Assembly (NCBI GenBank): GCA_964016885.1
Contig: OZ024741.1
Span: 206,770,001 to 206,834,000 of the forward strand
From: Eledone cirrhosa
Lineage: Eukaryota
Reading direction: 5' to 3'
DNA: 64,000 bases
Shown piece by piece: positions 25,395 to 55,755 of the stretch. Below the pieces are notes generated by a model. The model did no database searches. It worked only from the letters and a program-made list of their open reading frames with translations, and was not told the DNA's origin. A program made the translations under genes and the position numbers. Position 1 is the first letter of the stretch. Every line of letters begins with the position of its first letter.

Positions 25395-25608
25395 AATCAG
25401 TCACAACGGTGACTAATACAGGTACTTACCTTTGGGTTATGCACTCCAACTCATTCAGCAAGTTATAACAGGTTGTATGAGTTGAAGTGCATAAACCAAC
25501 GAAAAGTAAGTTGCTGTATATTTCATCCTTGTAACTGATTTTACTTAACTTGTCATATTGACTGAGTGCTCTTAGACTTGGATATTTCTACCAAACCTTT
25601 ACAACAGT
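25395..25608 (+). mobile_element. Short PLE-type fold-back (arms 25395-25540) plus tail, in (TA)n
   Basis: Degenerate inverted repeat with decayed hammerhead-like core; tail carries GAGTGCT at 25564. Confidence 0.55.
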
Positions 25609-25626
25609 ATATATATATATAGTGAT

Positions 25627-25945
25627 TTGGCGATATACCGTATATTTAATTAAAAACATTTTGAAGACCTTCCGCTATCATTTTAAAATAGTGAATATGT
25701 CAATTATTTCTTTTTTCAGCAAAGGAAGGGAGAGAAGCTGGTAGATTCTGTTTCACACTGTTGGTGTTCCTCAGAGCAACGTACTCCCCGCCTTAAAATT
25801 ATAGAGGCTGGATTGTTATAGAAATCCAGTAATAATCAGGAACTGATTATACAGAGCGATTGCCGGTCCAGCAAAAATTATAGCGCAAAAATAATAGCGC
25901 AAGGTCTTCAAAATGTTTTTAATTAAACATACGGTATATTGCCAA
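25627..25945. mobile_element. Element with ~58-bp terminal inverted repeats and an internal degenerate hammerhead (minus, 25737-25787)
   Basis: TTGGCGATATACCGTATATTTAATTAAAAACATTTTGAAGACCTT is mirrored at 25888-25945; CTGAGGA-ACAC/GTGT-GAAA core on the minus strand. Confidence 0.65.
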
Positions 25946-26336
25946 CTATACATACATTCATGTATACATCGCTATTTCAGAGCACCAATCCTAATTTATA
26001 TATATATATATATATATATATACATACATTCATGCACATATATATAGGCATTTACGCACAAATATGTACATGTATACGTAAATGTATGTATGTACGTATG
26101 TATATATGTATGCATGTATGAATGCATGTATGTCTGAATGTAAGTTCGTATGTATATATATATATATTTATAAAAGTGACACTTCAGGCTTTCAAGTTGA
26201 CAATTTATAGCCTAAATATTTTCTGCACTACCATTGCTAAGGTATTTCTACAATGGTCGTAACGGTGTGATAGTCTCCAATAGCAATAAGCGATAAGCAT
26301 GAATGTTACTCTTTGGAGGATATAAACCCAATTATG

Positions 26337-26477
26337 CACACACATGCACACACACACACACACACACACACACACACACACACACACACACACACACACA
26401 CACACACACACACACACACACACACACACACACACACACACACACACACACACACACACACACACACACACACACAC
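26337..26477. repeat. (CA)n microsatellite (one of dozens of CA/TA/TG tracts in the window)
   Basis: Direct observation. Confidence 0.98.
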
Positions 26478-27078
26478 ATTTATATATATACACATACATA
26501 TATGTGTATACGTGTGTTTCTCTCTCTGTCTGTATATATATATATATATATTTCTCTCTTTCTCTCAATATATATATATATTAATACCTCAGTTAAAACT
26601 AGTACATTTCTACATTTCTATATACATTTTAGACACAATGAGAAAGTAGTTCATCTCTGCGAAGATTCAAGCTAATGATGCTTCTATTGGTTGCGTTGTC
26701 GCAAATAAATATTAGTTTGGTAAATTTCAATTTTTCCTGAATAATTCCAGACTGATGGTACTTTTGATTGTGTTTTTATGAAGGAAAATGTATTCCGGAA
26801 ATGCGTTTCCGTGTTTAATATATAAACGAATCGTTTAAACATTTTAATTTCTTCTTTTAATTGATATGTATTATCCATCCCTTTCGTAGACAATATGTTT
26901 TTCACTCTGGTGGTATTCTATCCCATATAATTGAACATAATTTTTTGTGTATTTTTCGCTATATACTGTCTTATAAAGAGCCCGGAATCGATGCTAGAGC
27001 TCATTAAATTATAGGAGATTAACGTGAGTCTTTAACTCCGTTTTTTTAATTTGTTATATATATATATATATATATATA

Positions 27079-52106: not shown

Positions 52107-52530
52107 AATATTTTAGTTTGATGTAAGGCATGTCGAGAATAATAATAATATAATATTAATAATAATTGTTTCTACTTTAGGCACAAGGCCAGCAATTGCC
52201 CAGTGCATTACTGGTACTTTATTTTATCGACCCCGTAAGGATGAAAGGCAAAGTCAACCTCGGCGGGATTTGAACTCAGATCGTAAAGGGACGTAACTAT
52301 GCTGGAAAGCATGGCGTCCGACCCTCTACCGATACTGCCAATCCACCGCCCTTATTAATAATAATAATGTCCGTTTACAATTGTTTCGCTACACCATATA
52401 TTTCTGGATCAAATGATTATATATCATTATTGATCTGGTTCAGTTGAAAATAATTAACATAGGTAGAAATAGAGCAGCTCATCGGAACTTCAAAAGGAAT
52501 ATAAATTAAAATAAGGAAAGAATGTTACAT
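52107..52530 (-). mobile_element. Third copy of the 48.7 kb PLE 3' end
   Basis: Direct homology to 48760-48985. Confidence 0.85.
52167..52350 (-). mobile_element. tRNA-derived SINE with 13-bp TSD TATTAATAATAAT
   Basis: TSD at 52154-52166 and 52353-52365; empty site at 48791-48820. Confidence 0.9.
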
Positions 52531-52596
52531 ATGTCCTATATATATATATATATATATATATATATATATATATATATATATATATATATATATATA

Positions 52597-53949
52597 GCTC
52601 TAAGAAAAATACTTCTGAGCATTACATTACAATTTAGAAATAAAAAATAAAAAAATAAAAAATATATGATCAACACTACTGTGTTTTTTTTTGCAAAATG
52701 ACAATAATTTTTTAGCCAGATAGAAATACCTTAATTCAAGTACATATAGTCCGTCTGTATCGATCTAGAGAATTTTAAATATTAAATCTATACTTACAGA
52801 CGTAAAATGGCAACTGCCTGGTGCCTAGACAAGTTTAAATTTCAAAATTCAAACCTTTTCAGCCGATCGGGCAGAACTTCAAAAATTTAACCTGTTTCAC
52901 AAGGGATGTTATACTAATGAAATAATTAATTCATTACGGAACAACTATTTATAAAATAATTATTAGTGGAGTAATCAATTTTCTGTGATCAACGGTAGGC
53001 ACCCAGAAATTAAAATCACTTCTCCTAAGATAGTATCTTAAGACTGATCTGTCGCAAGCCTAATACATGTGCTTTTGCACACGACCTTCTCAGCATTCTG
53101 GCTCATATCCATGGCGCTAGAAATAACAGCCGTGAATATGTGATTATGAATTCAGCTCGACCGTAGGAGCAGATAATTTCAGTTTAGTAGTCATTTACAA
53201 ATATTAAGCTCTAAGAAAAATACTTCTGAGCATTACATTACAATTTAGAAATTAAAAATAAAAAAATAAAAAATATATGATCAACACTACTGTGTTTTTT
53301 TTTGCAAAATGACAATAATTTTTTAGCCAGATAGAAATACCTAATTTCAGTTTAGAAGTCATTTACAAATATTAAGCTCTAAGAAAAATACTTCTGAGCA
53401 TTATCTGCTCCTACGGTCGAGCTGAATTCATAATCACATATTCACGGCTGTTATTTCTAGCGCCATGGATATGAGCCAGAATGCTGAGAAGGTCGTGTGC
53501 AAAAGCACATGTATTAGGCTTGCGACAGATCAGTCTTAAGATACTATCTTAGGAGAAGTGATTTTAATTTCTGGATGCCTACCGTTGATCACAGAAAATT
53601 GATTACTCCACTAATAATTATTTTATAAATAGTTGTTCCGTAATTAATTAATTATTTCATTAGTATAACATCCCTTGTGAAACAGGTTTATGTTTTGAAG
53701 TTCTGCCCGATCTGCTGAAAAGGTTTGAATTTTGAAATTTAAACTTGTCTAGGCACCAGGCAGTTGCCATTTTACGTCTGTAAGTATAGATTTAATATTT
53801 AAAATTCTCTAGATCTATACAGACGGACTATATGTACTTGAATTAAGGTATTTCTATCTGGCTAAAAAATTATTGTCATTTTGCAAAAAAAACACAGTAG
53901 TGTTGATCATATATTTTTTATTTTTTTATTTTTTATTTCTAAATTGTAA
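52597..53949. repeat. Large fold-back (arms about 52626-53176 and 53401-53949) with central partial direct repeats
   Basis: Near-identical inverted repeat between (TA)n; GCTCTAAGAAAAATACTTCTGAGCATTA repeated at 52597, 53208 and 53376. Confidence 0.85.
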
Positions 53950-55162
53950 TATATATATATATATATATATATATATATATATATATATATATATATATAT
54001 ATATATATATATATATATACACAGTATATATATATATATATACACAGTATATATATATATATACAAGTATATATATGTTTGCACACTGGATTGGAAGGAA
54101 GTTTGATGAAGTGTAGTTTAAACGTTCAAACGCATAACTGATGTAATAGAATAGGGTTTTAACAAAATAATAATAGATCATCAATTGCGTAAACTTATCT
54201 CTCATTCTTAACAAACGACATACACACATACAAATGTATGTGTGTATGTTTACATCAAGTATATATGCATACACCCACACACTCAAACTTATGTATATGT
54301 GTGTGTGTGTTTGTATATATATATATACAGAGAGAGATAGAGAGAGAGAAGTGTGTGTGTGGGGGGGGGGGAGAATATATAAAGAACTGATTAGATTTCT
54401 TTAGGGTAAATGGAAATCTATGTCAATATGAAATGGTTATTGACTTGACAAGTGAATCGCTTAGCATAGTGTTTCCGTGTTTTTTAACAGTGGGCACAAT
54501 GAAAGTAATTCTAGAAGTGTTTATATATATTATAATATGTAACATGAGTATGACAACATCACAGTATAGGGACTAATATTTATTATATAAATGAGACGTG
54601 TTTCGCTAGTCTACAAGTGAACAAGATCTAGAAATTTTAGTCCGATAGGATTTATCGGAGAATTCAATTCCCAATAGTTTGTAATATCAAAGTGGTAAAT
54701 CAGCTCCTCAAATAAAGTAACGTAAACAAGAAATAGTTTGAACGCATATGCAAGCCAGCCATACTCAAAGTGCTTACTTGTGTCCTGGACCCAATTGGGT
54801 TTATGCAAAACGCAGTCTGCAGCAACAGGTGCAGTGCGCAATCTGCTAGTTATTGTGGCAGAATAAATGCAAATATGCCTGCCAAATTACTGCAATGCTT
54901 TGTCAGAGGATGCTTTTAAACTGCGATAGACTCAAGGTATCCATGTCTAGCTCCATGCGTTGGTCAGTTACTACTACCAAAACTAGAATAGAGTCAGCAA
55001 GTAGTGGCGTCATAGGAGGAAGAACGATCTCTTGTTCACCTAGTGACAGTGCTGGCGGGAAAAACCGAAATGAGATATATTCGAAATAAATTAGCGTTAT
55101 AGATCTCACCCTTTTGAAAACAAAGCTGCAAGTCAATAATGAAAACATCATCATATATATAT

Positions 55163-55755
55163 ATATATTAACAAATGGAAACTATATTTATAAAACCATA
55201 TTTATTTTATTATACATATTTCAAGGGCCACCAAGGCAAATTATGGTGCGCTTTCATCAGATAAAATACAATACAGATTAGTTTATAAATAAATATTGAC
55301 ATACCCTGAAAAAAGACAACCTTAACGGTTGGAGCTTCCTGGATAGTGGAGATACTACATTTATTGAGGGTGATAGAAAGTTACTTGCATACTCAATCAT
55401 AACTTTGGATGATAGAAAGTTATGAGTGAGTATGCAAGTAACTTTCTATCACCCTCAATAAATGTAGTATCTCCACTATCCAGGAAGCTCCAACCGTTAA
55501 GGTTGTCTTTTTTCAGGGTATGTCAATATTTATTTATAAAACTAATCTGTATTGTATTTTATCTGATGAAAGCGCGCCATAATTTGCCTTGGTGGCCCTT
55601 GAAATATGTATAATAAAATAAATATGGTTTTATAAATATAGTTTCCATTTGTTAATATATTGTATATTTACTCCACTAATCTGTTGAGTGCTTTATATCA
55701 GTTATAAAAATGTTTAAGCTTGTTGAATCCCAACAAATTAAATATAACCTCTGCA
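55163..55755. mobile_element. Hammerhead fold-back family F, copy 3 (arms 55163-55660)
   Basis: Intact hammerheads at 55204-55267 (-) and 55556-55619 (+); tail GAGTGCT at 55686. Confidence 0.9.

Follow-up and report, generated by a model that had tools for sequence, protein, structure and literature searches.

What fixes the point at which a Penelope-like element (PLE) ends is a question raised directly by the window, a 64-kb stretch of Eledone cirrhosa DNA in which several fold-back families carry the same hexamer, AGYRCT, in their tails. A tail at one end only and fold-back ends are hallmarks of PLEs without a settled cause. The initial annotation had placed the hexamer, mostly as GAGTGCT, at eight coordinates and at a fixed spacing of about 21–26 nt, and all eight coordinates proved correct. 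Seven of the sites sit in a fold-back tail, the opposite arm of each running directly into (TA)n, and the distance from the arm end to the A of the hexamer is 25 nt at 25564, 23 nt at 31315, 28 nt at 39682, 26 nt at 44946, 22 nt at 45614, and 27 nt at both 48463 and 55686. Counted to the first letter of the motif, these seven lie 21–27 nt past the arm end, close to the spacing claimed. The distance at 47574 is not measurable, because the window has no inverted arm there.

The hexamer as such is not enriched in the window, with 41 sites against about 51 expected from base composition (hand estimate), and four further GAGTGCT copies, at 7427, 20355, 29642 and 13091 (minus), lie outside tails. 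It is the position that is unusual. With one tail per family, AGYRCT occurred at 22–28 nt in 5 of 12 families, while 20,000 dinucleotide shuffles never gave more than 2 of 12; when all degenerate hexamers and windows were searched, 5 of 300 shuffles reached five families. Inspection by eye afterwards indicated that in one of these families (60215-60406) the 3' ends face inward, which makes 11 the fairer denominator. Chance was rejected as an explanation. The count of at least five unrelated families shrank to four unrelated groups among the fold-backs, because 45614, 48463 and 55686 belong to a single family (family A), which is itself homologous to the 39682 family (alignment score 91 vs a shuffle maximum of 51). 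Two occurrences had been overlooked: a degenerate site at 47449 that shares homology with 44946, and the element 52597-53950, in which the hairpin described below is present and RCT is missing. The remark that the motif is not simply a splice donor agrees with our data: a 5' splice donor (GTRAGT) was ruled out, given that GT precedes the motif at none of the eight sites and that the usual form outside the window is GAGCACT.

The unit behind the hexamer is a small bulged hairpin, of which AGYRCT is the 3' strand plus flank. Its order is RCUC, a variable stem, a 2-nt 3' bulge, GAGY and then an unpaired RCU. In family F2 (fold-back 25395..25607, plus strand; arms 25395-25540, 67-nt tail) the hairpin is imperfect, at about 25544-25570, and ends in GAGTGCT. 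The F5 tail (31278..31343, minus; arms 31344-32136 and 38271-39026) holds GCTC, a 4-bp inner stem, a TG bulge and CAGC-ACT at 31339-31316. The F6 tail (39625..39714, minus; arms 39715-40193 and 40921-41405) holds ACTC, a 3-bp inner stem, a TG bulge and GAGT-GCT at 39709-39682, and the F9 tail (44922..44996, plus; arms 43170-43515 and 44567-44921) holds ACTC, a 4-bp inner stem, a TA bulge and GAGT-GCT at 44925-44952. Family A carries the hairpin in three plus-strand copies: 45243..45680 (fold-back 45243-45593, 87-nt tail, hairpin 45598-45620), 48086..48529 (fold-back 48086-48437, hairpin 48447-48469) and 55163..55754 (fold-back 55163-55660, hairpin 55670-55692). A solo relative of F9 retains a degenerate version (47427..47454, plus; ACTC ... 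CAGT-GCT), and the element at 47574, which is without an inverted arm, has ACTC, a 3-bp inner stem, a CT bulge and GAGT-ACT (47574..47595, minus).

Further comparison showed that the pairing covaries. In hairpin lists curated by eye, the first inner pair is standard in 34 of the 35 first hairpins and in all 9 second ones, in the register of the 2-nt 3' bulge alone; 97.5% of cells are paired, with 30 double-sided changes, which none of 500 shuffles equalled. At the base of the stem, 28 rows have a G-C pair and 4 rows, all from the window, have A-U; the spacer is 8–23 nt, and the inner stem varies freely and covaries. Folding of single tails was no better than that of shuffles in most cases (z -2.3 to +1.4), and the minimum-energy fold of the 44946 tail differs from the proposed hairpin. 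A self-complementary dimerisation hexamer was also considered and rejected, because AGCACU, the commonest form, cannot pair with itself.

The elements are Penelope-like, and the motif-bearing fold-backs of the window, mostly non-coding, probably belong to the Hydra clade. Described features of that clade (PMC8557442) are a C-terminal GIY-YIG domain with a CxCX5C linker, a hammerhead close to the 3' end, insertion at (TA)n targets, and inverted 5'-truncated copies with a tail at one end, and the elements here share them, the hammerhead in some of the families. Window remnants show the GIY-YIG domain with the linker and no CCHH: those at 29146-29622 and 33213-33659 keep the linker, give Pfam GIY-YIG hits that fall short of the curated cut-off and, in the full-length relative P0121, align at the C-terminus (E 5e-23). 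The RWK and DKT motifs of the RT N-terminus are present in P0121 and in L001 (707-aa ORF), a region not preserved in the window. All seven motif-bearing fold-backs adjoin (TA)n at the tail-less end, and copies are inverted, 5'-truncated and tailed at one end only, as in PLEs generally; their tails measure 66–94 nt, longer than the 30–40 bp given for PLEs, the Hydra clade included (PMC8557442). Hammerheads were found by script in F6 (39820 minus, 41299 plus) and in family A (45492 plus in copy 1; 48343 plus and 48180 minus in copy 2; 55563 plus and 55260 minus in copy 3). By eye, a hammerhead-like fold was read in the tail-less arm of F5 (38920..39000, plus; core CTGACGA ... GAAAC) and a hammerhead-like core upstream of the 47574 hairpin (near 47661, minus), with remnants only in F2 (a core within 25395..25607, plus) and F9.

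Coding remnants of the Hydra clade are unevenly placed in the window. Among the motif-bearing fold-backs, F5 alone encloses such fragments (32285..33747), comprising RT at 32285-32422 (minus) and endonuclease at 32435-32627 and 33213-33747 (plus); no convincing Hydra ORF remnant was seen in F2, F6, F9, A or F14. A broken RT plus endonuclease with the CxCX5C linker lies at 29173..30236 (minus). The fold-back with most Hydra ORF, F13 (48694-51419), contains a broken RT thumb and GIY-YIG endonuclease at 49349..50183 (minus) and an inverted partial copy at 50420-50566 (plus); GCTC is present at +6, whereas neither a hexamer at 22–28 nt nor a hammerhead was detected in it. Direct linkage of the hairpin to a Hydra ORF was obtained from loci outside the window.

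Outside the window, 57 loci were selected by Hydra-clade GIY-YIG protein alone; a word-index protein search with one decayed endonuclease gave zero matches, and a three-sequence protein profile returned 7272 proteins. The hexamer lies 45–100 nt past the hammerhead cut in 31 of the 57 loci (24 of 38 families), against a mean of 2.3 and a maximum of 11 in shuffles and 0 of 57 in an upstream control, and 28 of the 31 show a true hairpin by eye. Hammerheads were detected in 66 of 109 outside loci. Among independently found ORF starts, 8 of 11 have the motif 35–95 nt upstream; there is no hairpin at the L027 ORF start. Of six Hydra consensus sequences in the literature, four (from coral, sea cucumber and sea louse) also show the hairpin by eye. 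Its conservation extends far beyond the source genome, to Hydra-clade Penelope-like retrotransposons in several animals. Among the 30 of 32 GAGCACT/GAGTGCT places listed for the Naiad and Chlamys consensus sequences, no recurring terminal hairpin was seen by eye. About 15,000 matches from a pattern scan of viral contigs were taken as chance.

Where, then, do insertions end relative to the hairpin? Across 12 families, the distance from the end to the 5' foot of the stem is 3–8 nt (sd 1.5) and unrelated to hairpin length (rho -0.02), whereas the distance to the hexamer is 22–37 nt (sd 4.4) and follows hairpin length. Since the foot distance is tight and the hexamer distance loose, the fixed point of the ruler is the stem foot, and the hexamer was rejected as its zero point. 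The ruler-like cis-signal proposed initially is therefore retained in its tie to insertion ends and abandoned as regards the hexamer as the unit. Other genomic copies of family A meet (TA)n at the stem foot, 2–5 nt before 55670.

A second hairpin lies 59–83 nt downstream of the first, directly before the ORF (upstream of the ORF start in 11 of 11), and precedes the conserved N-terminal motif by 34–76 nt. Tail-less copies stop directly before hairpin 1 and tailed copies directly before hairpin 2. In every hairpin-1 pairing found, the end lies 1–8 nt from the stem, bar one pair of two tailed copies; TA-run matches at L001 hairpin 2 and several chance-seed rows of 10–12 nt were left out before the true pairs were aligned anew. 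For hairpin 2 the rule covers three outside families, in which tailed copies stop 2–10 nt before the stem, and one window element: L008, L071 and L075 end 3–5 nt before it relative to L049, L089 at 4 nt, five copies at 2–8 nt relative to L090, and L008 at 10 nt relative to the mutated L059. The window element is F14 (52597-53950, non-coding), whose two hairpins (53152..53231, minus) are spaced 61 nt apart, foot to foot (53231 and 53170), with further copies at 52620 (minus), 53399 (minus) and 53407 (plus). Its end at 53950 falls 5 nt short of hairpin 1, the junction at 53342 falls 3 nt short of hairpin 2, and the inversion point lies 4–7 nt before the hairpins. In outside tails, the stem foot lies 50–74 nt from the microsatellite (measurable in 14 of 29 copies).

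The place of hairpin 2 just before the N-terminal motif, together with the AT-rich bases 5' of the stems, would suit a role in the 5' UTR as promoter, translation or packaging signal, or simply inherited sequence, with ends clustering by AT-rich match to (TA)n. We hold this to be very unlikely: AT-richness extends over the whole of the 3' regions, but the ends cluster at the stems, before both hairpins, and non-coding derivatives keep the hairpin with compensatory change.

By analogy with a Poseidon-clade element, in which reverse transcription in vitro began at two internal sites that border the tail (PMC11167929), we infer that insertion ends are reverse-transcription starts on the RNA. Two tandem hairpins between hammerhead and start codon would then probably each dock the RT, with copying starting a few bases upstream, a model drawn from sequence comparison. 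The endonuclease would nick (TA)n; annealing to the nicked target would involve the AT-rich bases directly 5' of each stem, and the protein, possibly as a dimer, would prime at both sites. Of the two ends of a fold-back, one would stop at hairpin 1 and its partner at hairpin 2; the tail would be the stretch between the two stops, containing hairpin 1 and hence the motif, and tail length would equal hairpin spacing because the RT starts just upstream of each hairpin. The arm/tail asymmetry, initially ascribed to one ruler, is better explained by two tandem hairpins. Several observations count against the docking model: F14 has neither RCT (TTA and TGA follow its hairpins instead) nor a detectable hammerhead, F3 has AGCACC at 36 nt, no hairpin was seen in the published octopus consensus Hydra-1_Obim, and the G-U (7) and A-C (6) counts do not distinguish the folding strand.

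As the wobble counts pick no strand, the hairpins might instead act on DNA, the GIY-YIG endonuclease recognising them in element DNA or single-stranded cDNA and cutting a few bases upstream while the intermediate is resolved. The 5' ends also map to the hairpin sites (8 nt before hairpin 1 in L059, about 12 nt before hairpin 2 in L006, and likewise the F14 inversion point), a pattern for which DNA cutting would equally account; the tail is reported to be required for endonuclease recognition (PMC11167929, citing Pyatkov 2004) and has been ascribed to endonuclease-mediated resolution (PMC8557442). We regard this as unlikely, since a spacer of such variable length with a covarying inner stem needs a single strand rather than duplex DNA, the 3' ends directly adjoin (TA)n as in target priming, and internal RNA starts have been demonstrated in a related clade (PMC11167929). 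Full-length copies such as L059, starting just before hairpin 1, would equally fit unit-length processed RNA, were the hairpin to direct RNA cleavage or termination a few bases upstream and the RT, in the manner of LINEs, to begin at the 3' end so created. Identical genomic ends are predicted in that case; it nevertheless seems quite improbable, as the Poseidon start is internal and independent of the RNA 3' end and of hammerhead cleavage, and no Rfam family reached gathering score among the 150 of 165 window matches listed or the 6 matches at four outside loci, all being sub-threshold and microRNA-like.

The docking model, if right, would let a covarying element of 25–30 nt predict both ends to within a few bases, which is testable with few mutants; curators would have a rule by which to set element boundaries and spot non-coding Hydra derivatives, and the element may show template positioning by the sister group of telomerase. 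In telomerase RNA (template-flanking elements) and in hepadnavirus epsilon, whose stem is bulged, a short stem binds the RT and fixes where copying starts or stops. Our hairpins may play a comparable part, the PLE RT being the sister group of TERT; in contrast to those systems, the element here comes in two copies, and nicked target DNA would serve as primer immediately upstream of the stem. A broader proposal, possible but rather doubtful, is that paired hairpins of identical architecture load a dimeric telomerase-related RT at two sites, with one nicked strand as primer for each, so that one rule would yield the PLE tail and head-to-head fold-backs, with clade-specific equivalents in all PLEs and a portable 30-nt signal writing any upstream RNA into (TA)n.

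No earlier description of the hairpin signal was found in the literature searched, and the words "hairpin" and "stem-loop" are absent from the main text of PMC8557442. Non-LTR retrozymes (bioRxiv 10.64898/2026.07.22.740005) and PLE minimal hammerheads (PMC4209133) are likewise non-coding PLE derivatives retaining the hammerhead terminal region; the available parts of both reports describe the hammerhead only, and their tandem arrays differ from the elements here, which are mostly fold-backs. The Poseidon element PAc shares an AT-rich target, a requirement for RNA 3' of the start and a predicted dimer, but belongs to a different clade, and its printed template has no GAGCRCU hairpin (PMC11167929). 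The two PAc starts mapped in vitro lie in an AC-rich stem-loop, and that study defined no element positioning them (PMC11167929). By eye, the printed PAc template (PMC11167929) also contains two hairpins of similar GGC...GCC form, separated by about 41 nt.

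The window is AT-rich animal DNA, apparently from a cephalopod, with microsatellites abundant throughout, and self-comparison revealed a series of local fold-backs. In most of them (TA)n directly abuts one arm, and the other arm carries an extra stretch of 15-94 nt, the tail, before the next microsatellite. Several arms contain hammerheads, and damaged pieces of GIY-YIG and RT sequence occur at 29173-30236, 32285-33747 and 49349-50566. Together these features make up the structure of Penelope-like elements (PLEs). The endonuclease fragments share the Hydra-clade linker as described in the consulted part of PMC8557442.

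The initial annotation had reported eight AGYRCT-type sites, placed at a fixed distance beyond those arms that end cleanly, in at least five families without other visible similarity. All eight are present. In seven, which are tail sites, the A of the hexamer is 22-28 nt beyond the arm end; the site at 47574 has no arm. Homology reduces the fold-backs to four unrelated groups: the sites at 45614, 48463 and 55686 belong to a single family (family A), itself a homologue of the 39682 family, and the element at 44946 has a relative at 47449. Of 12 window families, 5 carry the hexamer at 22-28 nt against at most 2 in 20,000 shuffles; when any degenerate hexamer and any window were allowed, 5 of 300 shuffles attained five families. 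This 12-family test included 60215-60406, whose 3' ends appear by eye to point inward and which should not have counted. Given the shared homology and the shuffle results, the window alone provides four unrelated groups and modest significance. The fold-backs at 45046-45115 and 60215-60406 form a family in which the 3' ends of both copies meet within a single (TA)n run, a geometry opposite to that of the other window fold-backs.

A profile built from the window endonuclease remnants, followed by a tighter alignment, was used to pick outside loci by protein alone. The sample comprised 109 loci (the best 80 of 191 metagenome loci, 1 viral contig and 28 genome contigs). These 28 contigs, filed under bacterial genomes, bear animal-type PLEs and microsatellites and are likely host contamination of bacterial assemblies. 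A hammerhead follows the ORF in 66 of the 109 loci, 57 of which extend 110 nt or more past it. AGYRCT occurred 45-100 nt after the hammerhead cut in 31 of these 57 loci (24 of 38 families), versus 0 of 57 in an upstream control and a shuffle mean of 2.3; three of the 31 hexamers (L025, L059 and L108) are incidental by reading. Many of the 26 loci lacking the hexamer hit a microsatellite before the expected motif place.

In each motif-bearing tail a complementary RCTC directly follows the arm end, and the two parts form a bulged hairpin in the order GCUC, variable inner stem, 2-nt 3'-side bulge, GAGC and RCU. The bulge is UU in 27 of 35 hairpins. A standard first inner pair occurs in 34 of 35 first hairpins and in all 9 second hairpins. 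Inner pairs average 3.3 in this register; shifting it brings the average to 1.1 or less. Across 32 aligned copies, whose rows were motif-selected and whose kinship was ignored, 97.5% of cells are paired with 30 double-sided changes, a level reached by 0 of 500 shuffles. Four window copies have A-U as the basal pair and the remaining aligned copies have G-C, and the third pair of L097 shows a further double change. By eye, the hairpin is found in four of the six published Hydra consensus sequences seen in the supplement of PMC8557442: it is present in Hydra-2_Amil and Hydra-2_Ajap, doubled in Hydra-1_Ajap (the first beginning at the third base) and variant in Hydra-1_Crog, while the Hydra-1_Amil consensus stops before the expected place and no hairpin was read in that of Hydra-1_Obim. 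The hairpin is a real cross-phylum cis element of a known retrotransposon clade.

Insertion ends were positioned by setting tailed copies against tail-less ones within each family, which gave a single value per family for 12 families (7 outside, 5 window). The end lies 3-8 nt upstream of the stem foot, the 5' base of the stem (mean 4.8, sd 1.5). Its distance upstream of the hexamer is 22-37 nt (mean 25.9, sd 4.4), and hairpin length has no effect on the end-to-foot distance. In individual copies this last distance falls as low as 1 nt at ends made ambiguous by TA microhomology; 30 of 33 outside hairpins have no tail-less partner among the loci. For family A, two RAD runs gave 5158 and 6128 reads, possibly derived from few loci, behind 55653 with loose ends entering (TA)n, and two runs of one sample gave 81 and 74 such contigs behind 55667. 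These loose ends, from the 24 of 808 rows that were listed, correspond to ends 2-5 nt before the stem. A full-length copy at L059:2217-4717, with a repeated flank of ~13 nt, begins 8 nt upstream of hairpin 1 and stops shortly before that hairpin would be expected to recur; it resembles a single, complete unit of a circular or tandem template.

In junction copies the same structure recurs 59-83 nt downstream, and such second hairpins lie upstream of the Hydra ORF start in 11 of 11 cases. Among 11 independently found ORF starts, the exact motif occurs 35-95 nt upstream in 8 and two motifs in 6; of the other three, L097 carries hairpin variants, L054 a single degenerate hairpin and L027 no hairpin upstream. 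Tailed copies end 5, 3 and 3 nt before hairpin 2 relative to L049, 5, 5, 2, 6 and 8 nt relative to L090, 4 nt within L089 and 10 nt relative to a mutated L059. The window element F14 (52597-53950) has two hairpins 61 nt apart, with RCT replaced in both. One of its ends falls 5 nt upstream of hairpin 1, and an internal junction lies 3 nt upstream of hairpin 2. From stem foot to microsatellite, outside tails span 50-74 nt in the 14 of 29 copies where this is measurable, in agreement with the hairpin spacing. A two-hairpin rule predicts both tail ends, and the hairpin structure, covariation, position and two classes of insertion end are shown by the data.

According to the consulted part of PMC11167929, a protein of the Poseidon clade initiates at two internal sites bounding the tail and requires the RNA lying 3' of these sites. 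On this model, the element protein would bind each hairpin on the RNA, and nicked (TA)n would prime copying that starts on AT-rich bases just upstream of each hairpin. We lean towards such docking and upstream starts as the mechanism. Some 5' ends also lie at hairpin sites, which counts against an RNA-start mechanism, and the wobble counts (7 G-U, 6 A-C) do not discriminate the folding strand. F3 in the window, F13 (48694-51419) and L027 fit the hairpin rule imperfectly, and most motif-bearing window elements are non-coding; both points also count against the mechanism. L001:394-530 and L003 each have an internal (TA)n run immediately upstream of hairpin 2, so that at the second start the element RNA would itself resemble the target. 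After the F13 arm end, in 51420-51587, GCTC at +6 and GAGCACA ~65 nt later are paired in the minimum-energy fold, possibly as a long-loop hairpin, though this could be chance. Telomerase and epsilon are comparison systems for the hairpin element.

Related fold-backs of a second PLE clade at 35786-37213 and 46257-46482, which we take to be Neptune/Nematis-like, have tails of ~52-54 nt without a GAGYRCT hairpin. A 302-aa ORF in the former (36297-37205, minus strand) encodes an RT C-terminus and a GIY-YIG domain with a Cys-rich linker, unlike that of the Hydra clade. The hairpin element therefore looks clade-specific, and these fold-backs provide a usable clade control. No description of the hairpin element came up in the literature searched, which covered consulted text of PMC11167929, PMC8557442, PMC4209133, PMC3846280 and bioRxiv 10.64898/2026.07.22.740005. 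By eye, the Poseidon template printed in PMC11167929 has two similar GGC...GCC hairpins ~41 nt apart, with an AC-rich stretch after each, and this pair may be the counterpart of the Hydra-clade paired element.

Other fold-backs include a nested family at 42490-43110 and 56245-57105 with a hammerhead-like core (56861), a 54-nt tail without the hairpin and the hexamer CAGCCG repeated near its junctions, and a small one at 51704-52062 with an intact-looking hammerhead (51890, minus strand) and a tail bearing a different hairpin and then CAGCTTC. Two tandem pairs of non-LTR retrotransposons occupy 1391-9817 and 11350-22324, the latter with a 1032-aa AP-endonuclease/RT ORF (13180-16278). A ~190-nt repeat, SINE-like by eye, occurs at 28192-28373, 51026-51234, 52160-52366 and 58031-58758, with two copies inside PLE arms, and 61304-64000 holds Helitron-like remnants with a Pif1 helicase domain.
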